Shown: positions 36,008 through 49,675, counted from the stretch's first letter. The stretch is DNA of 64,000 nt from Nitrospinia bacterium (GCA_029261715.1 JAJDAT010000032.1:10575-74574), one strand, 5' to 3'. Translations and numbers: made by a program. Notes: generated by a model from the letters alone, not told the origin.

Positions 36008-38935
36008 TTAACATCCTGTCTCAGAACTCCCATTATCCAGAAAATCTCCCAAAACAGTCGATTGAATCGCATTCTCTTTATCTTCAATTCTATCTATAAT
36101 TTGCTCCACTGTATCATCGGGAAATTCACGAAAAAAATCTACGTTTGTATCTCCTGGACCACTCGGAATATCGAAGTCTTCTTCTAATTGATCAACTAAT
36201 ATTTCGAATAAAGCAGGCTCTAAAGTCTGAGCTAACGGACCAAATTGAGTCTCTGGCGTTACTCCCAATAGAATGACATCATTATTTATAAATATAAATG
36301 AATCCAATGCTGCGTCACTTGTAGAACCCAATAAAGGATCAAAAAATGGATCTCCTATAGAATCTAAAAACGGATCAAAAAACGGGTCAAAAAATGGATC
36401 ATCTGCAGCGTCACTTGTAGGTTCGGTGGCGCTTGTTGAATTCCCACCATTTGTATTAACTTGCCCAAAAGTATTTACAGTGTTGCCAACTAATGTCACA
36501 GCGCCGCCTCTTGTCGTGATGGAACTGTCTGTGCTCAATGTAAAATCCCCGCCATCAAATTGATCAAAGTCAGCCGTTGCGGTAAGAGTCTTACCAAAAC
36601 CCGAGATATGAGCTTCAATCCTTGTACCCGAAGTAAAACTAACATCGCCTAGAGCCTTAAAGCTAATATCCTCGTGAAATACAATCTTGGACGCGATACC
36701 TTCTATATTTTTACGAGAAATAAAATTAGTCTTCTTATGCCCTAAATCAATTTCTCCAAATGAAATAGTTCCCGAAAAAATATCGCCAATATTTAACGTA
36801 GTAGTTCTTAACGAATTTATCTCGTTTTGGCTTAAATCGATTGTACATCCCGTTGTTCCTACGCAAATCGTTTCGTCAACAACCGATGAAGCGATAGTAA
36901 TGCTATCGCTAGACCCAGATCCATTTATAAGCGAAAGTGGATTGGTAACTATGGAAGAAGGAAGTCCAAAAATATCTTCTCTATTGCCAGTAAGGCCGCT
37001 TTGAAATTCAAAACCAGAAGCAAATAAAGCCGCAGGCCCACCGCTGGTAGTGATTACAAAAGGGGCAAATTGAGTATAAGTTCCGCTACGATTGAGATCG
37101 AAATCGGCATTAGCAAAAAACGCCCCACCCCCTGTCATGATATTTCCTTTCACGTTTATTCCAGAGTGGGCATTTAAACTAACAGAACCTCCTGATGAAT
37201 TTATTGTACCGTGCGTACTAATAGAGGAACCGGCAACTAAATCAATATCGCCGCCATTAGACTCAATTTTTCCGACCGTCAATGTGAGTCCTGCTATGAG
37301 GTTAATAAAGCCACCCTGTGTCCGAATCATATCGTTGGTGTCATTAAAGGTAATGGGTCCACTGAATGTTTGAAATATAACTGAATTGTTTGAGGTTGTT
37401 TGTAAATCTAATACGTTGTCGCTTAAATCATTAATCGTAATTGATGTATTAGCTTCTAAAATAATATTATTAACTGCATTTAAATCTTCTAAGGCTTTCT
37501 CTGAAATAGTAAAAGTCCCAGATCCATCGGTAAAAAGGACCTCATGGTCCCCAGAAATTTCAGGATCAAAGTCGCTAGATAATTTATCCTCAATAACAAT
37601 ATCGTCAGGATCTAAAAGTAACGTACCAGTTTTGCCATTAGCCGCAGTAGTTACGACCTCGCCATTGAAATCCAAAAATTGTTTACCCGATACTTCCACA
37701 AAACCGCCGTCGCCTGAGTTGGTTCCACCTTTGGCTTCAATCGCTCCATAAAATCGAGTGGTGTCGTCGGCCCAGTAAATAACTCTACCACCGTTACCAT
37801 TGTTTATTGCGTTAGCTTTTACCGTGGTGTTAGAACCGCCAAAAGTCACCGCAGCATTTTGTACTGATCCTTTGCCTTGGTAATCGCCGCCAATTAAAAC
37901 TTCACCACCACCTTGATCACCGGAAACATCGACGATTGCTGTGCCTAATTGACCTACCTTATGACCTAAAATTCGAACGCTACCGCCGATCTCTCCAGAG
38001 CCGGTTCCTGAAGCGTCAAGCGTACCTTCGTTTGTCGCGGTTCCATTTGGTCCCGCTTCTAAATAGATGGCTCCATTTCTTTTAGAAACTGATTGCGCTC
38101 GAATAACCCCCGTATTATTAACCACCGAACGAACCATCTTTTGCGCGGTATGCGCGGTTAACAAAACTTTGCCACCATCGGCTTGGATTGTTCCTGAATT
38201 GAAGACTCCGTTGTCTACAGTCTTTCCGTCTTTATCCACAAACGAACCATCCACCGGTTCGGTGATTGCAAAGTTAATCAACCCGTCGCCGGAAAAATCC
38301 ATGGTTGCCGCTTTGCCCGAACCCAATGCAATCGAACCCAAATTTGCCATTAACATGCCGCGGTTTTCGGCGCGTGGTCCTAACAACCCGATATAACCAG
38401 AAGCGTTTATTTGACCTTCATTTATAACAGCGGCTAAAGGTTTTGATGGATCTTGCGTAAAGCGATAATTACGATTTAAAAAATCTTGATTGGAAATTTG
38501 CAACGACGTCGCCATCAAACTAGCTACATTGATTATTGAGTTCGGACCAAAAAACACTCCCGACGGATTGGTAATAAAAATTTGTCCGTTAGCGTTAAGC
38601 TTTCCTAAGATAGCTGTTGGGTCTTGCCCAATCACTCTATTCAGCGCAACTGAATTAGAATTTGGTTGATTGAACTGCACAGATTCGGATTGACCAATAT
38701 CAAACCCCTGCCAATTAGTAATCATCTGATTCGACGATTGGTTGATCACCATATTTTGGGCGTTTGGTTGTTGGATATTTCCGTTTCCCGCTACTATTTG
38801 GCCGTCTTGCGGCAACGCAAACAGTAGAGCGGGAAAATAACTCATCAAGAAAATCAAAAACCCGACCCAAAAAGGAACCAAATAATAGGGCAATAGTTTC
38901 ACCGGTTTAATATCGTTTTTTCTATTCACAGTCAA
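36008..38935 (-). CDS. TpsA-like exoprotein (TPS domain), 975 aa, tandem paralog
   Basis: The N-terminal roughly 445 aa are near-identical to the 945-aa paralog and the rest is collinear but diverged. Acidic DPFF repeats lie near the C-terminus. Confidence 0.9.
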   Translation of the reverse strand: MTVNRKNDIKPVKLLPYYLVPFWVGFLIFLMSYFPALLFALPQDGQIVAGNGNIQQPNAQNMVINQSSNQMITNWQGFDIGQSESVQFNQPNSNSVALNRVIGQDPTAILGKLNANGQIFITNPSGVFFGPNSIINVASLMATSLQISNQDFLNRNYRFTQDPSKPLAAVINEGQINASGYIGLLGPRAENRGMLMANLGSIALGSGKAATMDFSGDGLINFAITEPVDGSFVDKDGKTVDNGVFNSGTIQADGGKVLLTAHTAQKMVRSVVNNTGVIRAQSVSKRNGAIYLEAGPNGTATNEGTLDASGTGSGEIGGSVRILGHKVGQLGTAIVDVSGDQGGGEVLIGGDYQGKGSVQNAAVTFGGSNTTVKANAINNGNGGRVIYWADDTTRFYGAIEAKGGTNSGDGGFVEVSGKQFLDFNGEVVTTAANGKTGTLLLDPDDIVIEDKLSSDFDPEISGDHEVLFTDGSGTFTISEKALEDLNAVNNIILEANTSITINDLSDNVLDLQTTSNNSVIFQTFSGPITFNDTNDMIRTQGGFINLIAGLTLTVGKIESNGGDIDLVAGSSISTHGTINSSGGSVSLNAHSGINVKGNIMTGGGAFFANADFDLNRSGTYTQFAPFVITTSGGPAALFASGFEFQSGLTGNREDIFGLPSSIVTNPLSLINGSGSSDSITIASSVVDETICVGTTGCTIDLSQNEINSLRTTTLNIGDIFSGTISFGEIDLGHKKTNFISRKNIEGIASKIVFHEDISFKALGDVSFTSGTRIEAHISGFGKTLTATADFDQFDGGDFTLSTDSSITTRGGAVTLVGNTVNTFGQVNTNGGNSTSATEPTSDAADDPFFDPFFDPFLDSIGDPFFDPLLGSTSDAALDSFIFINNDVILLGVTPETQFGPLAQTLEPALFEILVDQLEEDFDIPSGPGDTNVDFFREFPDDTVEQIIDRIEDKENAIQSTVLGDFLDNGSSETGC

Positions 38936-38952
38936 AAGCTATAAAGATAAGT

Positions 38953-40026
38953 TTAAGGAGTGCATCCTTGCGCTACTGCAGCAAAAGGAACATTAACAGG
39001 AGTATTAAACGCAACTGCTATATCTGGTCCTGCTGCGCTTACGAAATCGGATACGATAGAATCTCCTCCTCCCACATTGGAGTTTGATGCAGGTTGGGAA
39101 TCTTGTGAACTTGAAGTAGAGTCACCACTATCAGAAGAACTCGTGTCTCCAGAACTGGTACTCGAACTTGAATCAGAATCGGAACTACTGTCAGACTGTG
39201 AAGTCGATTGTTGAGTTGAGCCTGAGTCTTGTTTAAACATGGACGAAGGCAAACTGGTTCCAATCCGTCCCAGAACAACAGTACTGATGGAATTAAAATT
39301 ACTATTAGACATGGTCTGAGGAACTGATGGGGCTTGTCCCTGCGGAATTGTGCTCACGCTATTGGCTCCCACCAACTGGCTACCCGCAACATTAGGATCG
39401 ACATTGGAAGCGCTCATAGCTCCTGTTTTATTAGCCACAATCGTTTTTGTTGGAGAGGAGCTAATAAACCCAAAGGTACCTCTGGACGATAAGTTTGCAG
39501 TTGGCGTAACGACGCGAAAATTAGAATCTTTATTTTTTTGGCTTTTGTTAATGATGTACATAGAAAGACCACTAGCTACATTGATCAATCCTTGTCTTAG
39601 TTTTTTCCCCTTATTAACCTTGTAGGAACCAATTGACATTTTAGAATTTGGACCCAAAGCCAAAAGACTATTGTCTTTAAATTTTATTTTTAGCCGGCTC
39701 CCTCTTTTTGTGCGGAATCGGTCGGATGCATAAACTTCTTGTTTGAATTTGGCGCTTTTCCAGACAGCATTTGGATCGAATGAAACTGGTTTTATACTTA
39801 ATTTACCTGGAGTGGACTTGGCTACTGGTTCCGAACCTCCCGCCATCATTTCTACAGTTCCAATTATTCCAATAATCGTCCCAACCGGTTTTTCCTCAGC
39901 GGCCCAAGCAACAGATCCGAAATGTGAAGCTACAGACCCAAAATGTGAAATAACAAGCACAAAAATTGCCGACCAAAAAATACCGGGACCAGGGTTTGGA
40001 CGCGAAAAATTTATAGAGTCCGCCAT
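38953..40026 (-). CDS. Secreted FecR-domain protein (357 aa)
   Basis: Signal peptide, FecR-like core (DRFRTKRGSRLKIKFKDNSLLALGPNSKMSI...RGTFGF), and a Ser/Asp-rich tail ending AVAQGCTP. It is the first gene of the minus-strand operon, with a 17-nt gap to the tpsA gene. Confidence 0.75.
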   Translation of the reverse strand: MADSINFSRPNPGPGIFWSAIFVLVISHFGSVASHFGSVAWAAEEKPVGTIIGIIGTVEMMAGGSEPVAKSTPGKLSIKPVSFDPNAVWKSAKFKQEVYASDRFRTKRGSRLKIKFKDNSLLALGPNSKMSIGSYKVNKGKKLRQGLINVASGLSMYIINKSQKNKDSNFRVVTPTANLSSRGTFGFISSSPTKTIVANKTGAMSASNVDPNVAGSQLVGANSVSTIPQGQAPSVPQTMSNSNFNSISTVVLGRIGTSLPSSMFKQDSGSTQQSTSQSDSSSDSDSSSSTSSGDTSSSDSGDSTSSSQDSQPASNSNVGGGDSIVSDFVSAAGPDIAVAFNTPVNVPFAAVAQGCTP

Positions 40027-40175
40027 TTTTCTCCCTCTTTTAAAGAATAATGTCCAATATGAATATTTATTTAATTAAATTATTGTAAATTTAAACAAAA
40101 AAATCAAACTTATTATTTACGGATAAACCGCTTTTATAGTTTTATATTCATTAATGATACCATTTCCTCCAAAAA

Positions 40176-40193
40176 GTAAGGAGATGGGTCACA
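40176..40193 (-). promoter_or_regulatory. Conserved 18-nt motif TGTGACCCATCTCCTTAC (copy c)
   Basis: Third copy of the TGTGA-N6-TCCTT motif, about 150 nt upstream of the FecR-like gene start (40026) on the minus strand. Confidence 0.55.
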
Positions 40194-40392
40194 TTTCTAA
40201 AGATTTGTCTTAATAAATTTCAATTCCTAAGTGATTTTCAGGTTTATTTCTGCCCCGTGGAGAAGGGGATCTCAAAGAATTTTCGTCTAAGTCCCGCAAC
40301 TAAAATCAGAAATAAAGAAAGAGCTTGAAAAAGACCCGTTCTATATGCTAATTTCTCCCTCTTTATCCATATTTTATAATGGGTTTCAGGTT

Positions 40393-40407
40393 TGTGACAA
40401 TTTCACA
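40393..40407. promoter_or_regulatory. Palindrome TGTGA-CAATT-TCACA upstream of the KAS gene
   Basis: CRP/FNR-family-like half-sites with a 5-nt rather than 6-nt spacer, 45 nt upstream of ATG 40452. Confidence 0.35.
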
Positions 40408-40451
40408 CTTGTTTCCTAATGGGACGTTTGGCATTTTTACTTCGAAACTGA

Positions 40452-41702
40452 ATGGTTGACCAAAAAAACCCAGACTGGCGGATTGTCATCACGGGTGTTG
40501 GGCTGACCTCTCCCAATGGCAATAATCTAGCGGAATACCGAGAGAATCTGCTTCAAGGAAAATCGGGTATTGAAAAAATTGATATCCGATACATGGGAGA
40601 AGTTTTAGCCGGAGTTTGCAATTTTGACGAATTCAAATACCAGAAAAAGAAAGAACGAAGAAGAGGAACCCGGGCAGGTTCGGTTGGTATTTATTGCGCT
40701 CATGAAGCTATTACCGATTGCGGAATAGAATTAGACTCCTTCGATAAATCCAGAATAGGTATTTATTGTGGCGTTACGGAGCACGGCAACGTTGAAACGG
40801 AAAACGAAGTTTTCAACATAAGCCAATATGGTTACGACGTTAAATATTGGTCGCATCATCACAACCCGCGAACGGTAGCCAATAATCCTGCGGGAGAAAT
40901 TTCTCTCAATTTAAAAATTACCGGTCCACATTATTCAATTGGGGCGGCTTGTGCAGCCGGTAATTTAGGAGTGATTCAGGGATGCCAAATGTTGAGGCTA
41001 AAAGAAGTCGATATGGCTTTAGCCGGGGGTATTTCAGAAAGTATCCACACATTCGGTATTTTTGCTAGTTTTAAAAGCCAAGGGGCTTTGGCCTGGCACG
41101 AAGATCCAGAAAAAGCCAGCCGTCCTTTTGATTCAAGCCGAAATGGCATTGTTTGTTCCGAGGGTGGTTGTTTATATACATTAGAAAGATTATCAGACGC
41201 TCAAAAAAGAGGAGCCAAAATTTACGGGGAAATTGTTGGATACGGTGTTAACTCCGACGCTTTTGATTTTGTACTACCTCAACCCAAAGGCCAAACAGAC
41301 TGTTTAAATATGGCTTTGAATAATGCGGGTTTGAAAGCGGACGACATTGACATAGTAAATACCCATGCAACTTCAACCCCACAGGGCGACATCCAAGAAT
41401 GCATCGCAATTCGCAACGTTTTTGGTAATAGTAAAAATACTTGGATTAATAACACAAAAAGCTATATAGGACATGCAATGGGCGCTGCAGGAGCGCTAGA
41501 ATTAGCGGGAAATTTACCGGCATTTGACGATAAAATCGTCCATCCCACTATAAATATTGATCAGTTGGACCCAGAATGCGCTTTAGACAACTTGGTAATT
41601 AACCAACCGAAGCCGGTTGACCAGGTAAATTACATATTAAATAACTCATTTGGCATGCTTGGCATCAATTCCGCTTTGATCGTGAAACGGTTTGAAATAT
41701 AA
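40452..41702 (+). CDS. Beta-ketoacyl-ACP synthase (FabF/FabB-type KAS)
   Basis: 416 aa. Active-site Cys in YSIGAACAAG, and His motifs NTHATSTPQGD and SYIGHAMGAAG. Confidence 0.88.
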   Translation: MVDQKNPDWRIVITGVGLTSPNGNNLAEYRENLLQGKSGIEKIDIRYMGEVLAGVCNFDEFKYQKKKERRRGTRAGSVGIYCAHEAITDCGIELDSFDKSRIGIYCGVTEHGNVETENEVFNISQYGYDVKYWSHHHNPRTVANNPAGEISLNLKITGPHYSIGAACAAGNLGVIQGCQMLRLKEVDMALAGGISESIHTFGIFASFKSQGALAWHEDPEKASRPFDSSRNGIVCSEGGCLYTLERLSDAQKRGAKIYGEIVGYGVNSDAFDFVLPQPKGQTDCLNMALNNAGLKADDIDIVNTHATSTPQGDIQECIAIRNVFGNSKNTWINNTKSYIGHAMGAAGALELAGNLPAFDDKIVHPTINIDQLDPECALDNLVINQPKPVDQVNYILNNSFGMLGINSALIVKRFEI

Positions 41703-41752
41703 TAGGCGGTAGACTTAGGTAGGGAATCATAGAGGAGAGGAGTATTACTATA

Positions 41753-42016
41753 ATGACGAGAGACGACGTTAGAAATGCGGTTATTGGAATTTTGACCGAT
41801 ATTGCGCCGGACGAAGATTTTGATGCATTGAAGGACGAAGAGAAGTTGCGAGACCAGTTTGATTTAGATTCGATGGATTTTCTAGATATCGTTATGGAAT
41901 TGAGGAAGCGATACAACATCGAGGTTCCAGAAGCTGATTACGAACAACTCGTTACTATGACAAGCTGTATCGATTATTTGCAGCCTCTTTTAAAAAACCA
42001 GCAAATGGCTAGTTAA
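41753..42016 (+). CDS. Acyl carrier protein
   Basis: 87 aa. The phosphopantetheine attachment motif is FDLDSMDFLDIVMEL. Confidence 0.8.
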   Translation: MTRDDVRNAVIGILTDIAPDEDFDALKDEEKLRDQFDLDSMDFLDIVMELRKRYNIEVPEADYEQLVTMTSCIDYLQPLLKNQQMAS

Positions 42017-42141
42017 GCAAGGTTAAATACTCGGCTGTTCTTTCCCCCTATTAGAACAGCCTCGTCACAATAGACTCAATACCTAGCCAGTATAATTTTA
42101 CCCCTCCTCAAAGAATTATTACTGAAAGTTCATACCAAAAT

Positions 42142-43527
42142 ATGAAATACGACGCCATTATTCTAGGCGCCGGACTATCCGGCTTAGCTGCTGGAATTCG
42201 ACTTGCCTGCTTCGATAAGAAAGTATGCATCGTAGAAAAACATGTCGAAATTGGCGGATTAAACTCTTTCTACCAAATGAAAGACCGATGGTTTGACGTT
42301 GGACTTCACGCCATGACAAACTATTCACCGAAGGGAGTCCGCTCTTCTCCACTTGGAAAACTTTTAAAGCAACTTCGGTTCAAACATGAAGATTTTCAAC
42401 TATGCCAGCAAAAAGAATCAGAAATCAGCTTTCCTGGAGTTTCCCTAAGGTTTTCTAATGATTTTGAACTTTTTAGGCAAGAAATATCAGAAAAGTTTCC
42501 AAACCAAATCGATGGTTTTGACCAATTAACTCAAAGAATTCGCGACCATGACGATCTATCGCTTAAAAGCGGTTTCCTATCGTCTCGATCTGTTTTGGCG
42601 GAATACCTCACGGAGCCCAAACTTGCGGAAATGTTATTTTGTCCCCTGATGTTTTATGGCAATCCCCAAGCGGACGATATGGATTTCACTCAATTCACCA
42701 TCATGTTTAAAGCTATATTTCTTGAAGGCTTCGCTAAACCTTTGGGGGGAATGCGTCACATTCTTAAACTGATGGTGGACAAATATAAAAGCTATGGAGG
42801 CGAACTGAGGCTAGGACGAGCCGTAAAATCCCTTAATTTATCAAGCGAAGAAGTTAACTCCGTAACGTTGTCTAAGGGTGAAGAGCTACAAGCGGAAACT
42901 GTAATTTCGTCAATCGGATATGCAGAAACTATGCGACTTTGCGCGCCTGAAAAATTTCCCGAGGACTCTCTACAAGATGGGGAAATTTCTTTTGTAGAAT
43001 CTCAATATGTTTTAAACGTCCAACCTTCCGAAATTGGATACGACAAAAGTATCGTTTTTTTTAATACCAAGGACGAATTTAGTTATCGTAAACCCAAAGA
43101 AATGGTAGATTTAGCTTCAGGAATAGTTTGCTGCGCTAATAATTTCGATTACCCTAAAGAACAAGAAGGCCTCATTCGATTTACTTTTTTGGCTAATCCA
43201 GACCTTTGGTTTGGGCTTTCACGAACAGAATATAAGGAAGCAAAGTCTTATTGGCAGAAAAAAACTTTGGAAGCGGTAGTCGGTTTTTTGCCCGATTTTC
43301 GCGATTCTGTGGTATTTTTAGATACTTTCACCCCAAAAACTATTAAAAAATTTACCGGTCACGCAAACGGAGCCGTTTATGGATCGCCTGTTAAAATCCG
43401 TGATGGAAAAACTCCGGTAAAAAATCTATTTATTTGTGGCACCGATCAGGGTTTTTTAGGTATTATTGGAGCCACTTTAAGCGGCGTTACAGTTGCGAAT
43501 ATTTACGGGTTAAAAGCATCTTATTAA
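42142..43527 (+). CDS. FAD/NAD(P)-dependent oxidoreductase, phytoene-desaturase (CrtI)-like family
   Basis: 461 aa. N-terminal dinucleotide fold YDAIILGAGLSGLAAGIRLA...VEKHVEIGG, and a C-terminal FICGTDQGFLGIIGATLSG. Confidence 0.7.
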   Translation: MKYDAIILGAGLSGLAAGIRLACFDKKVCIVEKHVEIGGLNSFYQMKDRWFDVGLHAMTNYSPKGVRSSPLGKLLKQLRFKHEDFQLCQQKESEISFPGVSLRFSNDFELFRQEISEKFPNQIDGFDQLTQRIRDHDDLSLKSGFLSSRSVLAEYLTEPKLAEMLFCPLMFYGNPQADDMDFTQFTIMFKAIFLEGFAKPLGGMRHILKLMVDKYKSYGGELRLGRAVKSLNLSSEEVNSVTLSKGEELQAETVISSIGYAETMRLCAPEKFPEDSLQDGEISFVESQYVLNVQPSEIGYDKSIVFFNTKDEFSYRKPKEMVDLASGIVCCANNFDYPKEQEGLIRFTFLANPDLWFGLSRTEYKEAKSYWQKKTLEAVVGFLPDFRDSVVFLDTFTPKTIKKFTGHANGAVYGSPVKIRDGKTPVKNLFICGTDQGFLGIIGATLSGVTVANIYGLKASY

Positions 43528-43596
43528 AGAATACCTTTAGATAAGTCGAAATAATAAAATAAAATTAGCTTTTAAAAATTTACTGTTGGAAAAATT

Positions 43597-45039
43597 ATGG
43601 CAAGGAATTGGTTAAAAGGAGCACAAACTCGTTACGATAGCGTTGTAATAGGCAGTGGCCTGGCAGGGATGACGGCTGCAAATATGCTCGCTAAAGCCGG
43701 TCATTCGGTTTTACTGCTAGAGCAGCATTACAATTTTGGCGGACTAGCTACCTGGTTTAAACGCAAAGGTGGGCACATCCTAGATATTTCTCTTCACGGA
43801 TTTCCTATCGGGATGATAAAAACCTGCCGAAAATACTGGAGCAAAGAGATCGCCGATTCCATTGTTAGACTCCAAGGAGTTCGCTTCGACAATCCCCAAT
43901 TCACTTTTTCCACCACCTTTGACAAAATTGATTTTACTAATATCATGCGCGAAAGATTTGGCGTCTTGAAGGAAGTGATTGACGACTTTTTTGTGACAGC
44001 CCGAGAAATGAATTTCTACGATAATCTTTCCATGACCACCCGGGATTTATTCGAAAAGTTTTTCCCTGGAAGAACCGATATTCACCGGCTCTTAATGGAA
44101 CCAATCACTTATGCAAATGGTTCTACTTTGGACGATCCAGCCGTAACCTACGGCATTGTATTTTCTAACTTCATGGACAAAGGAGTTTATACCTTTAAAG
44201 GCGGCACTGACGCGCTGGTCAAAAAAATGAAAAAAGAAATGCTAAAAAATGGCGTGGATATCCGGAACCATTGCTTGGTCGATAAAATTTTAGTAGAAGA
44301 TAAAAAAACCCGAGGAGTTCGCGTCAATGGTCGCGAAATTGAATCAGATGTTGTGCTCTCGAACTCTAGCTTACCGGCTACAATTCACAAATTAACCGGC
44401 GATGAACATTTTTCTCCAGAATTTTTAGAAGAAGCGAGAAAAGTGAGAATGAATAACAGCAGTTGCCAGGTTTATATGGGAATAAAAAAAGGCGAAAAGA
44501 TCGATTACACTGGGGACTTGTTGTTTACCTCCGTAACCGACGAGTTTAGCGCAAAAAAGTTATGCGATAAAAATGTTACCAGCAGAACATTTTCATTTTA
44601 TTATCCAGAAATCAGGCCAGGTACTAACCAATACTCAATAGTTTCTTCTACAAACGCTAATTTTGAAGACTGGGCGAATCTAACTGAAGAAGAATACCTC
44701 AAAGAAAAAGATAAGTTGATCGAATCCACCTTAACTGCGCTTGAAAAGTACGTTCCCGATATTCGCAGTAAAGTCGACCATGTGGAAGCCTCAACTCCGA
44801 AAACGTTTAAGCGTTACACTATGCATACACGCGGTTCTTCGTTCGGCACTAAATTTGAGGGACTGAAAATTAGCAAAGAATTGCCCGAACAAATTGCGGG
44901 CTTATTTCATACGGGATCGGTCGGCATCATAATGTCGGGTTGGCTCGGAGCCGCCAACTACGGAGTTATCGTTTCAAATGAAGTGGATCGCTTTCTTAGA
45001 AAAGTAAAATCCGAAAGATTAGAAACGGTAAGCGTCTAA
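43597..45039 (+). CDS. FAD/NAD(P)-dependent oxidoreductase, phytoene-desaturase (CrtI)-like family (second copy)
   Basis: 480 aa. [20 protein letters not shown]...LEQHYNFGG, and a C-terminal [21 protein letters not shown]. Confidence 0.7.
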
Positions 45040-45098
45040 TACTTCAGCGAAAGATCTTGTTTTGAGCAGAACTTTTTTCCTTCCTTTTAGTTATCCTT

Positions 45099-45842
45099 AT
45101 GCAATTTGATTTTTCCGACCAAACCGCTATCGTCACTGGAGGAACCCGAGGCATTGGTAGAAGCGTTTCAGAAGCTTTTTTAAAAGCGGGCGCTAAAGTC
45201 GTGGCAACTTATAAAAGCAACCACGATGCCGCCGAATCTTTTTGCAAAGACAACTCTCAATACAATTCCCAAATACAACTTGCACAGTTTGACGTATCCG
45301 ATAGCGAAGGAGTCGAAGGATTCTACAAACTTGTAGAAGAACGATATGGACCATTCCAAATTTTGGTTAATAATTCGGGAATTCGCAAAGATTCCGTTGT
45401 GGGAATGATGAAGGAAGAAGATTGGCGAGACGTTATTGACGCAAATTTGACCGGAACTTTTTTAATGAGCAAATTGGCGGTTCATCATCTCATGCGCCAA
45501 AGGTATGGCCGAATCATAACCATCACCTCCCCTATTGGCCGGATGGGTTTTGCCGGGCAATCTAATTACGCCGCTTCCAAAGCTGCGCAAGTCGCTTTCA
45601 CTCAATCGTTAGCAAAAGAAGTCGCCAGCCGCGGAATCACCGCTAATTGTATTTCGCCGGGTTTTATCGAAACGGATTTCATATCCGATCTATCCGACAA
45701 ACAGCGGGATGGCTATAAAGCTTTAGTTCCACTCAAACGATTTGGCAAACCTGAAGAAGTCGCCAATGCGGTATTGTTTCTCGCCTCCAAAGAAACCGCT
45801 TATATTACGGGAACCACCCTAGAAATTTCCGGCGGACTTTAA
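45099..45842 (+). CDS. fabG: 3-oxoacyl-ACP reductase (SDR family, FabG-like)
   Basis: 247 aa. TGGTRGIGRS, NNSGI and the YAASKAA (YxxxK) motif. Confidence 0.85.
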   Translation: MQFDFSDQTAIVTGGTRGIGRSVSEAFLKAGAKVVATYKSNHDAAESFCKDNSQYNSQIQLAQFDVSDSEGVEGFYKLVEERYGPFQILVNNSGIRKDSVVGMMKEEDWRDVIDANLTGTFLMSKLAVHHLMRQRYGRIITITSPIGRMGFAGQSNYAASKAAQVAFTQSLAKEVASRGITANCISPGFIETDFISDLSDKQRDGYKALVPLKRFGKPEEVANAVLFLASKETAYITGTTLEISGGL

Positions 45843-45850
45843 AAAACCAA

Positions 45851-46609
45851 TCAAATAATCAACGAAAGACAGGTTACGCCGCCATCGGCTTTTTCAAATT
45901 CACTCATTGGAATTTGAATAACTTGAAAACCGCATTCGCGTATCTTAGCAGCTAGCTTTGGGTATCCTTGTGGAGCAATCACATAACTACCCACTACCAA
46001 ACAATTAGCGGAATAACTTTCCTTCGTGGATACCTCAATAATTTGAAATTTTTTAAACGCTGTTGCCTCTATTTTGGAACAGTCCAAAATAATTCTTCCG
46101 TCTCCCAGATAAGTCGCCGCGCTTTTCAAATGAAGCCCATCCAAAACAGGGACAACAGTAATTGGTTTTTTGGTAAAGGTCTTTAAAAACTCAACGCCTT
46201 CCAAATTCGTGCGCGTAGATTCTCCAATAAAAATTTCATCTTCCGTTTGCAACACGTCTCCGCCATCCAGTGTCGCCGGAGGCAACATGTAAATAATGGA
46301 AGTGTAGCGTTCAAGCTCGGAAACAATAGATTCGCCTTCACCGCGACGAGTTTCAGCCTTCATAGAACAAAGAACCGCTTTATCTTCTAACATGACAACG
46401 GGATCTTCGACAAAAGGAGCGTCTGGAAAATTTTCCTGGGGATCTAGGTGGATTACCGAAAGACCGGCGCGCGTCAAAGCGTTTGCGTACTGACGGTGTT
46501 GATTAAGGGCTTTGCCAAAATCAATAGAATCGCTCTGGGGATGATTAGAAATAGCGTCTGCAAAACCGGGGGTGGGTTCGCGCACTAAAGCCATCGAACG
46601 ATTCATCAA
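45851..46609 (-). CDS. Dimethylarginine dimethylaminohydrolase (DDAH)/amidinotransferase-fold protein
   Basis: 252 aa. DDAH-like N-terminus (ALVREPTPGFADAIS...QHRQYANAL) and a C-terminal catalytic-Cys region ADGGVTCLSLI. Confidence 0.7.
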   Translation of the reverse strand: MMNRSMALVREPTPGFADAISNHPQSDSIDFGKALNQHRQYANALTRAGLSVIHLDPQENFPDAPFVEDPVVMLEDKAVLCSMKAETRRGEGESIVSELERYTSIIYMLPPATLDGGDVLQTEDEIFIGESTRTNLEGVEFLKTFTKKPITVVPVLDGLHLKSAATYLGDGRIILDCSKIEATAFKKFQIIEVSTKESYSANCLVVGSYVIAPQGYPKLAAKIRECGFQVIQIPMSEFEKADGGVTCLSLII

Positions 46610-46635
46610 TAACCCCCATTCCGTTTTACAAAAAC

Positions 46636-47109
46636 CTAATCAATGGTGGGAGTATTCATAAGCCGGGAGAAATTCAACATTTGAAAATGTTTCTTGGCGC
46701 CGCGATATTTTTTCATCATCGCTTTGGATGGTTTAAGACCTTCTTCGACTTTGTTCTTCTGAGCGATATAAATATAACCCTTTGTTTCAGAAAAGTCGTG
46801 GCGCGTTAGAGACATGATTTTTCTATCGTATTCATCCGGATATTGATAATGACGATCAAGCCCTGCAAGCTTTTCTTCTTCCATTTCATAAATCATCCCG
46901 ATCATCATTCCCAAATTATCGTGTGTGGGCTCAATATTAGCGTGACCCAGCCCTTCAATTCCTTCATTATCCACCGGGACTTTATTAAAAACGCGCTTCC
47001 AGGCAGAAAGAGTAACTGAATACTTGGTTGTAAAAGAAAATCCCAGCTCTTTATAAACCTTTTCGTTGATCAACTCATCATAAATAAATACACGGACAAT
47101 ATTTGACAT
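46636..47109 (-). CDS. Gamma-glutamylcyclotransferase-like (AIG2/GGCT fold) protein
   Basis: 157 aa. The N-terminal VFIYDELINEKVYKELG resembles the GGCT YGTL-type start. This is a weak assignment. Confidence 0.4.
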   Translation of the reverse strand: MSNIVRVFIYDELINEKVYKELGFSFTTKYSVTLSAWKRVFNKVPVDNEGIEGLGHANIEPTHDNLGMMIGMIYEMEEEKLAGLDRHYQYPDEYDRKIMSLTRHDFSETKGYIYIAQKNKVEEGLKPSKAMMKKYRGAKKHFQMLNFSRLMNTPTID

Positions 47110-47285
47110 TCTAGTCTCTATAGAAAGTAATTTAAAAATACAAAAAATTACGAGGTTATTTTAATCTGTGTTAGGATGCTATATTAGCAAAATAACGCGA
47201 TCAAAGCTGTTTATATTTGCGTTTATAAAGGATTTATACATCCTTTTTTCAATAAAGTTAAAGTTACCTGGAAAGGAGTGAACTC

Positions 47286-47612
47286 ATGGCCGGCAATGTA
47301 GTTGAAATCTCCGACGCCGAATTTGAATCGTCAATTATTCAAAGTGATAAGCCCGCTTTAGTGGATTTCTGGGCAGAATGGTGTCAACCCTGTAAAATGC
47401 TTGCCCCTACTGTGGAAGAAATCGCAGGCGAGTACATCGATAAAGTCAAAGTCGCCAAAGTTAATGTAGACGACAACCCAGCAATCGCTACCAAGTTTGG
47501 TATTCGCGGTATCCCTACTCTTTTGCTTTTTAAAGAAGGAAAAGTAGTTCAGCAAATGGTAGGCGTTAAGCCTAAGAGTGATATCACAAAAGCTATCGAA
47601 GAAGTTCTATGA
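47286..47612 (+). CDS. trxA: Thioredoxin
   Basis: 108 aa. LVDFWAEWCQPCKMLAP...GIRGIPTLLLFKEG. The active site reads CQPC rather than CGPC. Confidence 0.88.
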   Translation: MAGNVVEISDAEFESSIIQSDKPALVDFWAEWCQPCKMLAPTVEEIAGEYIDKVKVAKVNVDDNPAIATKFGIRGIPTLLLFKEGKVVQQMVGVKPKSDITKAIEEVL

Positions 47613-47623
47613 AATTGGTTTCC

Positions 47624-47653
47624 CCGGCTTAATGGCCAGTAGCCTTAAGCCGG
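47624..47653 (+). terminator. Candidate terminator hairpin after trxA
   Basis: CCGGCTTAA-N11-TTAAGCCGG, a 9-bp stem, followed by a weak T-tract. Confidence 0.4.
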
Positions 47654-47726
47654 TTGATTCAATTCGTTAGTCTTCAATAATCTGACCACTCTGGTCCTCA
47701 AAGGCCTTCATCCTCTGGAGCTTGCG

Positions 47727-48431
47727 ATGTCGAAAAAACTGGAATGCCTCAAAAACGTTTCTATTTTTTCGGGAATGAACGACACCCACCTTGAAGAAAT
47801 CGCCTCGATCACCATAGAGAATAAGTTCAAAAAAAATAAAGTCATTTTTAGTAAAGGCGACCGAGGAAACGTTTTATTCATTCTCACCTCAGGTACCGTA
47901 AAATTATCTCTTTTTGACCAATCCGGTAAAGAAATGATTTTAAAAATGCTTTATAAAAACGACTTCTTTGGTGAAATGTCGTTACTAGACGAATTCTTTC
48001 GTTCCGCAACCGTTACTGCCGTTGAAGATTCACAAGCTCTTCTTATTTATAGAAACGAATTTATGCGATTAATTCACCAATTTCCAGGAATCGCTTTGGA
48101 AATGTTGAAAGTCTTCATACACCGTTTAAAAACGAGCGACAAAAAAATCGTTAGTCTTACTTTTTTCGACGCGTTCCGAAAAGTAAGTTCTACTGTCATC
48201 GATTTAGCGGAGAAAACCGGACGTCAGGAAGGAAAATACACCGCTATCGACTTAACGTTAACCCGCCAGGACCTAGCCAATATGATCGGCATGAGCCGAG
48301 AAACGTTAACTCGCATTTTGCAAGAATTACACTTTCGAGAAATTTTAAACGTTAGTAGAAAAAAAATAATCATTCTCGATCAAAAAGCTCTGGAAAATGA
48401 AATTGAAAACGCGCGAGTCCCAAAACTTTAG
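47727..48431 (+). CDS. Crp/Fnr-family transcriptional regulator
   Basis: 234 aa. cNMP-binding domain (FGEMSLLDEFFRSATVTA) and C-terminal HTH (RQDLANMIGMSRETLTRIL). No N-terminal Cys cluster. Confidence 0.8.
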   Translation: MSKKLECLKNVSIFSGMNDTHLEEIASITIENKFKKNKVIFSKGDRGNVLFILTSGTVKLSLFDQSGKEMILKMLYKNDFFGEMSLLDEFFRSATVTAVEDSQALLIYRNEFMRLIHQFPGIALEMLKVFIHRLKTSDKKIVSLTFFDAFRKVSSTVIDLAEKTGRQEGKYTAIDLTLTRQDLANMIGMSRETLTRILQELHFREILNVSRKKIIILDQKALENEIENARVPKL

Positions 48432-48496
48432 CGCTTTTTTAAAATACCGTCTAACCTGCCCTTTTTGAACAAATTCCATCCTTCAGTTTTAAAAAA

Positions 48497-48514
48497 TGTG
48501 ATCTACTTCCTTTT
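48497..48514 (+). promoter_or_regulatory. Conserved 18-nt motif TGTGATCTACTTCCTTTT (copy a)
   Basis: Lies 64 nt upstream of the FecR-like ATG 48578. A TATATT -10-like hexamer at 48535-48540 places the motif centre near -42. Confidence 0.55.
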
Positions 48515-48577
48515 CTTATATAGCCATCTTGTCGTATATTAAAATAAGAGAACAAAAAAAATCATTCATAAGGCGAT

Positions 48578-49675
48578 ATGTTTTCAAATATTTCCCGGAC
48601 CTTAAATTCAAATAAATATAAAAAGTGGACTTTGCTTTCCTTTTGGATGTTAGTTCTTTCGCTCAGTTGGCTAGTTGAAGCAAAGGCGGAAGAAGAACCC
48701 GTGGGAACAATCATTGGCGTGTCTGGGGAAATTTTATACAGAACTGCGGGTGACGATCCCGTCGCAAGTAAGGATAAACCTGGCGAGACTAAACTTGCTT
48801 CTTTTACGCCCTGGGAGAAAGTTAAGTTTAAACAACCTGTCTACGCTAAAGACGAATTCAAAACCTCAAAACGCAGTCGGCTCAAAATAAAATTTAACGA
48901 CAATAGCCTCATGGCGCTAGGCCCAAACTCAAAAATGCAAGTGGGCTCATATGTTTTCAGTAAAAAAAAGAAGCTGCGTCAGGGAGTGATGAAGATTTCG
49001 TATGGGTTATCTATGTACATCGTCAACAAAACCCAACGTAATAAAAATTCCAGTTTTAGAATCGTTTCGCCTACCGCAAATTTAGCGGCGCGCGGTACCC
49101 AGGGATATGTAAGTTCTTCCGATAAGATTACTTACCTGGCAAACCAAGCCGGAGCAATGGACTCCTCCAGCAGCGATCCAAATATCAAAGGGAATCAACT
49201 GGTCGGCGCGATGAAAAAAAATTCAATTCCGGCAGGACAACCGCCAACCCCCCCGACAAACTTGACAAATAACGACCTAAGCGCCGTTAGAAACGTTGTG
49301 ATGGGACCGATAGGTATTAATCCTAACAACCCAATAATTAAAGATTTAACTCAAACTGCCCCGGTTCAAAAGAAAAAAGCTGCAAAATCCAAAACAAGCG
49401 ATAAAAGCGGAGGTACAAAAGGCGACTCCAGCGAAGAAGGCGATAGCGAGAGTTCAGAATCTAGCGAAGGTGGGGATAGCGGTGATTCCGGTGGCGATAG
49501 CGCAGATTCTGGAGGCGACTCTGGAGGCGGAGATAGCGGCGGCGGAGATGGCGGAGGCTTTGCCGACAGTTTTACATCCACCGGTAGTTCCGGAGGCGGT
49601 GGTAGTGGCGGTGGCGACTTTGCTCCTGTTAACAATCCTTTTTCACCGGCTGCTCTAAGTTCCTGTTCCGGCTAA
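48578..49675 (+). CDS. Secreted FecR-domain protein (365 aa)
   Basis: Paralog of 38953-40026, with the same core (KRSRLKIKFNDNSLMALGPNSKMQV...RGTQGY). Gly/Ser/Asp-rich tail ending ALSSCSG. Confidence 0.75.
   Translation: MFSNISRTLNSNKYKKWTLLSFWMLVLSLSWLVEAKAEEEPVGTIIGVSGEILYRTAGDDPVASKDKPGETKLASFTPWEKVKFKQPVYAKDEFKTSKRSRLKIKFNDNSLMALGPNSKMQVGSYVFSKKKKLRQGVMKISYGLSMYIVNKTQRNKNSSFRIVSPTANLAARGTQGYVSSSDKITYLANQAGAMDSSSSDPNIKGNQLVGAMKKNSIPAGQPPTPPTNLTNNDLSAVRNVVMGPIGINPNNPIIKDLTQTAPVQKKKAAKSKTSDKSGGTKGDSSEEGDSESSESSEGGDSGDSGGDSADSGGDSGGGDSGGGDGGGFADSFTSTGSSGGGGSGGGDFAPVNNPFSPAALSSCSG

Follow-up and report, generated by a model that had tools for sequence, protein, structure and literature searches.

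A five-gene cassette at positions 40452 to 45842 of a 64,000-nucleotide stretch of a Nitrospinia bacterium genome (GCA_029261715.1, JAJDAT010000032.1:10575-74574; the whole of this stretch is referred to below as the window) encodes a beta-ketoacyl-ACP synthase (KAS), an acyl carrier protein (ACP), two flavoenzymes here named Ox1 and Ox2, and a FabG-type reductase (FabG2). We found that the ancestral form of this set is a conserved module of seven genes, which begins with these five and ends with a FabZ-like dehydratase (FabZ2) and the enoyl reductase FabI. The module is best read as a second type II fatty-acyl synthase, complete in itself and with a private carrier protein. The tie of the cassette to a known pathway, Ole, is one of genomic context. 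On balance we lean toward the reading that the cassette is a type II, flavoenzyme-based acyl-ACP line that supplies the thiolase OleA and so plays the role of the Pfa synthase.

The ORF (open reading frame) listing and the family scans of the 12 ORFs across positions 36008-49675 of the window placed all five genes on the + strand, as the co-oriented set that a first-pass annotation of the sequence had described, with intergenic spacings of 50-125 bp and, as that annotation had also stated, with no dehydratase, enoyl reductase or acyltransferase inside the cassette. The KAS gene (40452..41702, +) carries both ketoacyl-synthase domains, PF00109 and PF02801, and the best solved relatives of its product are FabF proteins (5e-69). 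When aligned to the genome's canonical FabF (alignment A1), to which it is 34-35% identical, the protein keeps Cys167, His305, His341 and Lys336 invariant; the Cys-His-His ketosynthase proposed earlier is thus intact, and the triad together with the conserved lysine identifies a dedicated, elongating synthase of the KAS I/II type. In the same alignment, the GFGG gating loop reads GMLG (NSFGMLGIN), with the usual gate phenylalanine replaced, and a family-specific WSHHHNPRTVANN segment stands in place of the canonical loop. The score on the fabF model TIGR03150 is 334.5 bits, against a cut-off of 493.75. Across Nitrospinota, and in metagenome loci as well, this KAS has orthologs that are 62-75% identical.

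The ACP gene (41753..42016, +) encodes a carrier protein that is dedicated, in agreement with the earlier description, and has a PP-binding domain (PF00550 at 1.4e-6). Its phosphopantetheine serine is Ser40 of the DSM motif (DLDSMD) and is invariant in alignment A2, in which the protein is 25% identical to the genome's AcpP. It scores below the cut-off of all NCBIfam ACP models, for instance 33.5 bits on TIGR00517 against the required 70.45. The last gene of the cassette, FabG2 (45099..45842, +; PF13561 and PF00106), had been called a FabG-type ketoreductase, and the family scores support a 3-oxoacyl-ACP reductase of this type: it lies under the cut-off of TIGR01830 (280.6 bits vs. 297.75), passes that of the FabG subfamily model NF009466 (254.8 vs. 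222) and is 39% identical to canonical FabG. The genome's canonical genes pass their models (fabF 651.7, acpP 119.7 and fabG 347.9 bits), whereas KAS, ACP and FabG2 of the cassette fall outside housekeeping type II fatty acid synthesis (FAS II) as defined by the curated FabF, AcpP and FabG equivalog cut-offs.

The cassette had been said not to be the core fab operon, and indeed a separate canonical plsX-fabH-fabD-fabG-acpP-fabF-rnc cluster lies elsewhere in the genome, with the canonical fabZ adjoining lpxA and bamA. The description of the cassette as an orphan has to be given up. The dehydratase and enoyl reductase partners, overlooked in the first-pass annotation, lie on another contig (C14 of this genome, G000:C14:262588-263832), where FabZ2 is paired with the genome's only FabI; of 20 Nitrospinota genomes sampled, 17 have these two genes directly adjoining the cassette. 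In this genome, no convincing FabK was found and FabA is absent.

Other genes of related function were noted in the same genome. A further FabF-like gene on contig C14 (L027:7910-9232; 440 aa) has an N-terminal extension, adjoins rplQ and rpoA, and scores 467 bits on the fabF model, just under the cut-off. A separate aryl-polyene/flexirubin-like cluster (L028; G000:C25:99000-118000) comprises a CoA ligase, a LolA2-like protein, an RND (resistance-nodulation-division) transporter, a KAS (PRK09185, 521 bits), a FabG and a glycosyltransferase. Biotin (pimeloyl-ACP) synthesis was considered as a function of the cassette and rejected, as the genome has a full-length BioC-like gene; its score is 169 bits, for a cut-off of 185, and no other methyltransferase exceeds 62 bits.

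The two genes in the middle of the cassette, Ox1 (42142..43527, +) and Ox2 (43597..45039, +), encode the paralogous phytoene-desaturase-family flavoenzymes that had been reported: both are Amino_oxidase/NAD_binding_8 proteins (PF01593 and PF13450, with PF00890 in addition in Ox2), Ox1 has an FAD Rossmann N-terminus, and their mutual identity is 26% by genome search and 23% by tblastn. For both proteins, the best NCBIfam matches are the carotenoid isomerase, CrtD and crtI families, all far under cut-off. On crtI_fam TIGR02734, with a cut-off of 238.1 bits, Ox1 scores 57 bits and Ox2 83 bits, which by score places both outside the CrtI family, and Ox2 reaches 97.4 bits on the CrtD model TIGR02733, with a cut-off of 549.7. 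None of KAS, ACP, Ox1 and Ox2 reaches any curated NCBIfam cut-off. Single-sequence searches gave weak CrtI matches only. When a 59-sequence profile of the Ox1 family was compared to solved structures, the matches were a CrtD-like desaturase, 4rep, at 1.4e-23 and CrtI, 4dgk, at 3.2e-23. An AlphaFold2 model of Ox1 built on the Ox1-family alignment (A3) has a pLDDT of 94.1, and Foldseek ranked 4rep, 4dgk, 3ka7 and the plant phytoene desaturase (5mog) at the top for this model, at 14-18% identity. Because of the profile search, the confident structural model and the Foldseek ranking, Ox1 is predicted to be a flavoprotein of the CrtI fold whose subfamily stands apart from the curated families of carotenoid enzymes. 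The CrtI fold says nothing of the substrate of Ox1. No other protein of the cassette is as conserved as Ox2, whose 22 aligned orthologs have a mean column identity of 77% (alignment A4).

One unusual Ox2 copy was seen in a one-contig genome (G090), in which the ORF at L054:10478-12820 extends into an SprT-like domain for a total of 781 aa; FabG2-FabZ2-FabI are not beside Ox2 there, and OleA was not found in that genome. The long ORF was rejected as an informative fusion, as the SprT-like extension lies in a rearranged locus, and this Ox2 could be a copy that is in decay or has been rearranged, or else the result of faulty assembly.

The extent of the module became apparent from gene order in 20 Nitrospinota genomes of five families, sampled over about 19.5 kb around Ox1 (less at contig ends). 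FabG2-FabZ2-FabI directly follow Ox2 in 17 of these genomes, and KAS is adjacent to the Ox1 set in 14; where KAS is not adjacent, the five genomes checked all keep an ortholog elsewhere at 69-75% identity. From this gene order, the ancestral unit is KAS-ACP-Ox1-Ox2-FabG2-FabZ2-FabI, and FabZ2 and FabI have been relocated away from the cassette in the window's family. The usual place of the cassette, in most Nitrospinota, is after tsf-pyrH-frr-uppS-cdsA-dxr-ispF. Of 120 Nitrospinota genomes, 95 have an Ox1 ortholog, in single copy and at 54-95% identity; among the 57 high-quality genomes the number is 53. When sorted by family (f1 to f9), Ox1 occurs in 94 of the 105 genomes of f1-f5 and in none of the 14 of f6-f9. 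Beyond Nitrospinota, the order KAS-ACP-Ox1(-Ox2) was also seen in contigs of Planctomycetia and Phycisphaerae, and a Victivallales chromosome retains all the parts but has them dispersed over three sites, one for KAS plus ACP, one for Ox2 and one for an Ox1-like gene. An exhaustive search of representatives gave 250 clusters at E<=1e-30, and matches in a protein atlas point to Planctomycetota, Verrucomicrobiota, Bdellovibrionota and Acidobacteriota. In the literature, we found no paper that assigns a function to the cassette or mentions it in Nitrospina, and the N. gracilis genome paper makes no mention of phytoene, carotenoid or desaturase.

The genome that contains the window also encodes candidate parts of an Ole pathway, and these are scattered: oleA-oleB lies on contig C5, an oleC-like gene on C15 and an oleD-like gene on C8, all apart from the cassette in the window and from FabZ2-FabI on C14. 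The OleA-like gene (G000:C5:321288-322331) scores 441 bits on NF006720, whose cut-off is 285, and its best solved relatives, 3row, 3s21 and 4ku2, are found at 3.5e-64, compared to about 1e-16 for FabH; by both measures, this genome has an OleA-type thiolase distinct from FabH. We take these three structures to be Xanthomonas OleA. A haloalkane-dehalogenase-like hydrolase (OleB-like) directly follows, overlapping the end of the OleA-like gene. The OleC-like AMP-ligase on C15 shares 39% identity with the OleC portion of an OleBC fusion, with the next best AMP-ligase in the genome at 22% (to the OleC of metagenome locus L151), and the OleD-like short-chain dehydrogenase/reductase on C8 shares 41-45% identity with the 3Beta_HSD-family genes found after OleC in metagenome loci L149 and L151. 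The OleA-like and OleB-like genes stand in a row with an MsbA-like ABC transporter gene (L075:6203-10207; G000:C5:319202-323206), preceded by a gene for a Usp/PCP_red-domain protein, and the same four-gene order is present in a second genome, G019 (L077). The MsbA-like neighbor could serve in export of the OleA/OleB product.

The physical association of cassette and ole genes comes from metagenomes. We fetched 80 loci with the Ox1 profile, 76 of which have a called Ox1 ORF. KAS was found in 52 of the 80, ACP in 62 and Ox2 in 31, followed by the later genes of the module, FabZ2 (24), FabI (18) and FabG2 (13). Ole genes are present in 23 loci: OleA in 18, OleB in 8, OleC in 5 and OleD in 8. All these counts are lower bounds because many of the loci are short, and among the 17 well-flanked loci (>=4 kb upstream and >=7 kb downstream of Ox1), 10 carry at least one Ole gene. 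Since FabG2 is present in 13 of the 31 loci that hold Ox2, it is an optional member of the set. A complete Ole set was seen in two loci, L149, with the order OleA-KAS-ACP-Ox1-Ox2-FabG2-FabZ2-FabI-OleBC-OleD, and L151, with the order KAS-ACP-Ox1-OleA-OleB-OleC-OleD. Further arrangements include a tandem OleA-KAS duplication before the flavoenzymes in L088 and L089 (OleA-KAS-ACP-OleA-KAS-Ox1...) and, in L086 (2272-6519), a 1415-aa BcrAD_BadFG + DUF2229 activase-type fusion just 5' of OleA and the cassette.

Within Nitrospinota, OleA and Ox1 share a common family pattern, with family f8 as the exception. Both genes are found in all five genomes of f1 and all five of f2, and each in 19 of the 21 genomes of f3; in f4, OleA is present in 54 and Ox1 in 61 of 70 genomes, and in f5, OleA in three and Ox1 in all four. 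Both are missing from f6 (two genomes), f7 (three) and f9 (eight). The single f8 genome, G111 (L161/L162, L061 and L079), has OleA-OleB and is missing Ox1. It is also the one genome of the 120 with a match to PfaA (TIGR02813), and it has in addition a FabA-domain ORF with an open frame of 1038 aa. No match to PfaA (TIGR02813) was obtained in the window's genome. The pattern of OleA, Ox1 and Pfa within the phylum is suggestive and not statistical, because it consists of one clade against the rest plus one exception and thus of few independent events, a point that also counts against the supply of OleA by the cassette.

From the gene identities, catalytic residues, conservation, synteny and co-distribution with ole genes, we infer a substrate, a chemistry for Ox1 and Ox2 that is independent of oxygen, and a product, as follows. 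KAS would elongate a chain carried on the dedicated ACP, and FabG2, FabZ2 and FabI would carry out the reduction cycle. With no need for molecular oxygen, Ox1 and Ox2 may insert double bonds into the chain on the ACP or isomerize them there, in which case full saturation would be skipped in some cycles. OleA would then take the resulting unusual, probably polyunsaturated acyl-ACP, with the private ACP as the handle that it recognizes, and join two chains head to head. OleD, OleC and OleB would convert the OleA product to a long-chain olefin, and OleA acting alone would give a ketone.

In this proposal, the module would take the part that the Pfa polyketide-type synthase has for OleABCD in Shewanella (pfaABCDE; PMC6463001, PMC3098273). 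Like the cassette, Pfa is a dedicated acyl-ACP line apart from housekeeping FAS II, and both are found beside or together with ole genes; the co-occurrence of ole genes with pfa-like synthases has been described (PMC3098273). In Nitrospinota, the Pfa synthase is found only in G111, the single OleA-bearing genome of a family without Ox1. The two lines differ in their construction: Pfa is a multidomain type I polyketide-like synthase in which FabA-like dehydratase domains make the cis double bonds, whereas the cassette module consists of discrete type II proteins with two CrtI-fold flavoenzymes. The fuller version of the proposal, in which the module is an oxygen-independent type II polyunsaturated fatty-acyl synthase with Ox1 and Ox2 setting the double bonds of the ACP-bound chain, a functional alternative to Pfa feeding OleABCD, is put forward tentatively, as a possibility less probable than the supply of OleA itself.

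Another published likeness is that of the FASII clusters with phytoene-dehydrogenase-like genes described by Rattray et al. (2009; PMC2649909) in Desulfotalea psychrophila (DP2405/DP2406 and DP1860), Geobacter, Pelobacter and Kuenenia. As in the cassette, amine-oxidase/CrtI-like flavoenzymes lie inside FAS II-like clusters, in Desulfotalea as an adjacent pair, and those authors proposed an anaerobic desaturation extension of FAS II (PMC2649909). D. psychrophila makes C31:8 and C31:9 hydrocarbons with no known pathway for polyunsaturated fatty acids, according to the same paper, and has DP2405/DP2406 in its FASII clusters (PMC2649909); the likeness of these two genes to Ox1 and Ox2 is one of description only. 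Radical SAM enzymes, methylases and a phenylacetyl-CoA ligase are part of those clusters (PMC2649909) and are absent here. The phytoene-dehydrogenase homologs of FAS-like clusters were, going by reports of 2023 and 2026, without an experimental test of function (PMC10139942; bioRxiv 10.64898/2026.05.19.726425).

A number of observations weigh against the reading in which the cassette supplies OleA. None of the cassette members has a known product or enzyme activity. CrtI-type enzymes normally work beside pre-existing double bonds, and we know of no precedent for the first desaturation of a saturated chain by a CrtI fold. Membrane desaturases are encoded in 50 of 58 high-quality Nitrospinota genomes of the order, and monounsaturated chains are therefore obtainable when oxygen is present. 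The ole genes are unlinked to the cassette in this genome and in the Nitrospinota genomes examined. No Ole gene was found in 57 of the 80 metagenome loci, many of which are short, nor in 7 of the 17 well-flanked ones, and several loci carry just OleA-OleB, an incomplete olefin pathway. Across the phylum, 15 genomes have Ox1 and no OleA match and 7 have OleA and no Ox1; most of these are incomplete assemblies, and among them are G032 (97% complete), without Ox1, and G039 (91%) and G049 (90%), without OleA. Lastly, heterologous tests of anammox CrtI homologs, which may or may not be orthologs of Ox1 and Ox2, had as their outcome just that no lycopene was made (PMC4790861).

The strongest competing explanation, though in our view an unlikely one, is that the cassette makes ordinary monounsaturated fatty acids for the membrane by a route that needs no oxygen. 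A medium-chain acyl-ACP would be dehydrogenated and isomerized by Ox1 and Ox2, much as by Helicobacter FabX, a flavoenzyme which makes a double bond on acyl-ACP without a membrane desaturase, and the special KAS, FabZ2 and FabI would carry the cis chain on, like the products of Enterococcus fabI-fabN-fabO. The absence of FabA is in favor of such a route, not only from this genome but nearly throughout, with one of 120 Nitrospinota genomes over the cut-off and none in f1-f5. So are the family f5, which has the cassette (4/4) but no PF00487 desaturase (0/3), the presence of the genome's only FabI in the ancestral operon, and the frequent position of the operon among membrane-lipid and isoprenoid housekeeping genes (uppS, cdsA, dxr and ispF). 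However, the membrane desaturases of those 50 genomes would stand beside it, bulk membrane fatty acids need no private ACP, and the repeated ole adjacency, in 23 of 80 loci, is left unexplained. Families f6-f9 lack the cassette and desaturases and, in all but one genome, FabA as well, and because of this no complementary pattern of the cassette with FabA or with desaturases was found in Nitrospinota. The fabI-fabN-fabO operon of Enterococcus (PMC9671860), as described for E. faecalis, does resemble the module in that it combines FabI with an accessory KAS and a FabZ-like protein, but neither it nor the FabX system has CrtI-fold enzymes, a private ACP or a link to ole genes.

It is quite improbable that the true substrates of Ox1 and Ox2 are isoprenoids, squalene or carotenoids that they would desaturate or isomerize, and that the two are merely co-operonic with KAS, ACP and FabG. 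They resemble CrtI, CrtD and CRTISO in their fold and FAD-binding N-terminus, their best family matches are carotenoid enzymes and their best structural matches are 4rep and 4dgk, they are the sole CrtI-family genes that tblastn found in the genome, which has one SQS_PSY gene, and in many relatives the operon is beside dxr and ispF. But sequence identity in the structural alignments to 4rep and 4dgk is 17-18%, all curated carotenoid models are missed widely, and the lone SQS_PSY gene looks like a squalene synthase (150 bits on TIGR01559 vs. about 55 on the CrtB models). The genomic partners of Ox1 and Ox2 are acyl-ACP enzymes, not carotenoid enzymes: in distant lineages they stay with KAS, ACP, FabZ2 and FabI with no isoprenoid gene near. 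The anammox CrtI homologs in FAS clusters, too, are reported to have given no lycopene (PMC4790861).

The first-pass annotation had made a different connection, in which an unusual acyl chain modifies the neighboring two-partner secretion (TPS) exoproteins or the envelope in concert with them. This idea was founded on position only, namely the FecR/TpsA neighbors here and in the close relatives L003, L005 and L040, and we now regard it as very improbable. The cassette had been placed exactly between two FecR/TpsA arms. The left FecR gene (38953-40026, - strand) does abut it, but four unrelated genes, for a dimethylargininase-like protein, a GGACT-like protein, a thioredoxin and a Crp-family regulator, occupy 45851-48431 before the right FecR gene (48578-49675). 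When we carried out the comparative genomics that the annotation had called for, the cassette proved to be widespread without TPS genes. TPS/FecR homologs flank it only in the window's own genus (L003, L005 and L040). This genus accounts for a single one of the 20 Nitrospinota genomes sampled, and none of the 80 metagenome loci has such flanks; the proposed link to exoproteins therefore lacks support. The cassette is, moreover, far older and more widespread than the TPS neighborhood, and no acyltransferase is present in the locus. The TPS/FecR flanks look like a genus-specific neighborhood without functional meaning, a local accident. For this window, a false lead is thereby removed, and no functional tie of the cassette to the TPS secretion genes is left. 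What stands of the annotation's interpretation is its accessory pathway, one that elongates and modifies an ACP-bound chain with CrtI-like enzymes, and this is still the best reading; the TPS part of it does not stand.

A ladderane-type pathway like anammox cluster I, finally, is hardly credible, for although a dedicated ACP, a FabF homolog and a phytoene-dehydrogenase homolog are likewise together in one cluster there (PMC10139942; bioRxiv 10.64898/2026.05.19.726425), no radical SAM enzyme and no second or inactive FabF is among the 12 ORFs scanned in the window, the carriers are Nitrospinota and many other non-anammox lineages, and even in anammox bacteria, according to these reports, no experiment ties the cluster to ladderanes. 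Cluster I (amxACP, amxFabZ, FabF2/FabF-mut, PDH and a B12 radical SAM enzyme; PMC10139942, bioRxiv 10.64898/2026.05.19.726425, PMC4790861) shares with the module a private ACP along with FabF, FabZ and phytoene-dehydrogenase homologs, but has one flavoenzyme versus the two here, contains a FabF pair resembling a ketosynthase and chain-length factor (KS/CLF) together with the radical SAM enzyme, and is restricted to ladderane producers.

As for the immediate surroundings of the cassette, the unit is closed downstream of FabG2 by the convergent dimethylargininase-like gene. This gene and the GGACT-like gene (45851-47109, minus strand, convergent with the cassette) are kept only in the closest relatives, L003-L005. 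Upstream, the divergent intergenic region between the FecR and KAS genes (40027..40451; 425 bp) holds TGTGACAATTTCACA at 40393-40407, a perfect palindrome 45 bp 5' of the KAS start and the sole such site in the window, and the gene for the Crp-family regulator (47727-48431) is near. As a conserved CRP-type operator 5' of KAS, this palindrome was considered and rejected: it is not at the same place in L003 or L005, and a regulatory role is doubtful because its position is not kept in these close relatives. In one RNA library (X1; word share 0.07), contigs of a 90-95% identical relative match parts of KAS, the KAS/ACP junction, the Ox1/Ox2 junction, Ox2 and FabG. As this is a single library, with contigs, which cannot reveal transcripts, and with possible carry-over of DNA, it gives a hint, and no more, of cassette expression in that relative.

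If the module does make polyunsaturated chains for OleABCD, it would be a second bacterial route to highly unsaturated acyl chains besides Pfa synthases and membrane desaturases, one that uses a flavoenzyme fold so far known from carotenoid chemistry and a double-bond chemistry new to fatty-acid biosynthesis. It would explain the C31:9 hydrocarbons of pfa-less organisms like Desulfotalea, a question left from 2009, and would give a testable function to the phytoene-dehydrogenase homologs in FAS-like clusters, those of anammox bacteria included. For the organisms themselves, it would mean that the Nitrospinales, the ocean's dominant nitrite oxidizers, along with many bacteria of the Planctomycetes-Verrucomicrobia-Chlamydiae (PVC) group and other lineages, make polyunsaturated long-chain hydrocarbons or ketones, and new lipid biomarkers of Nitrospina could be expected in oxygen-minimum zones.

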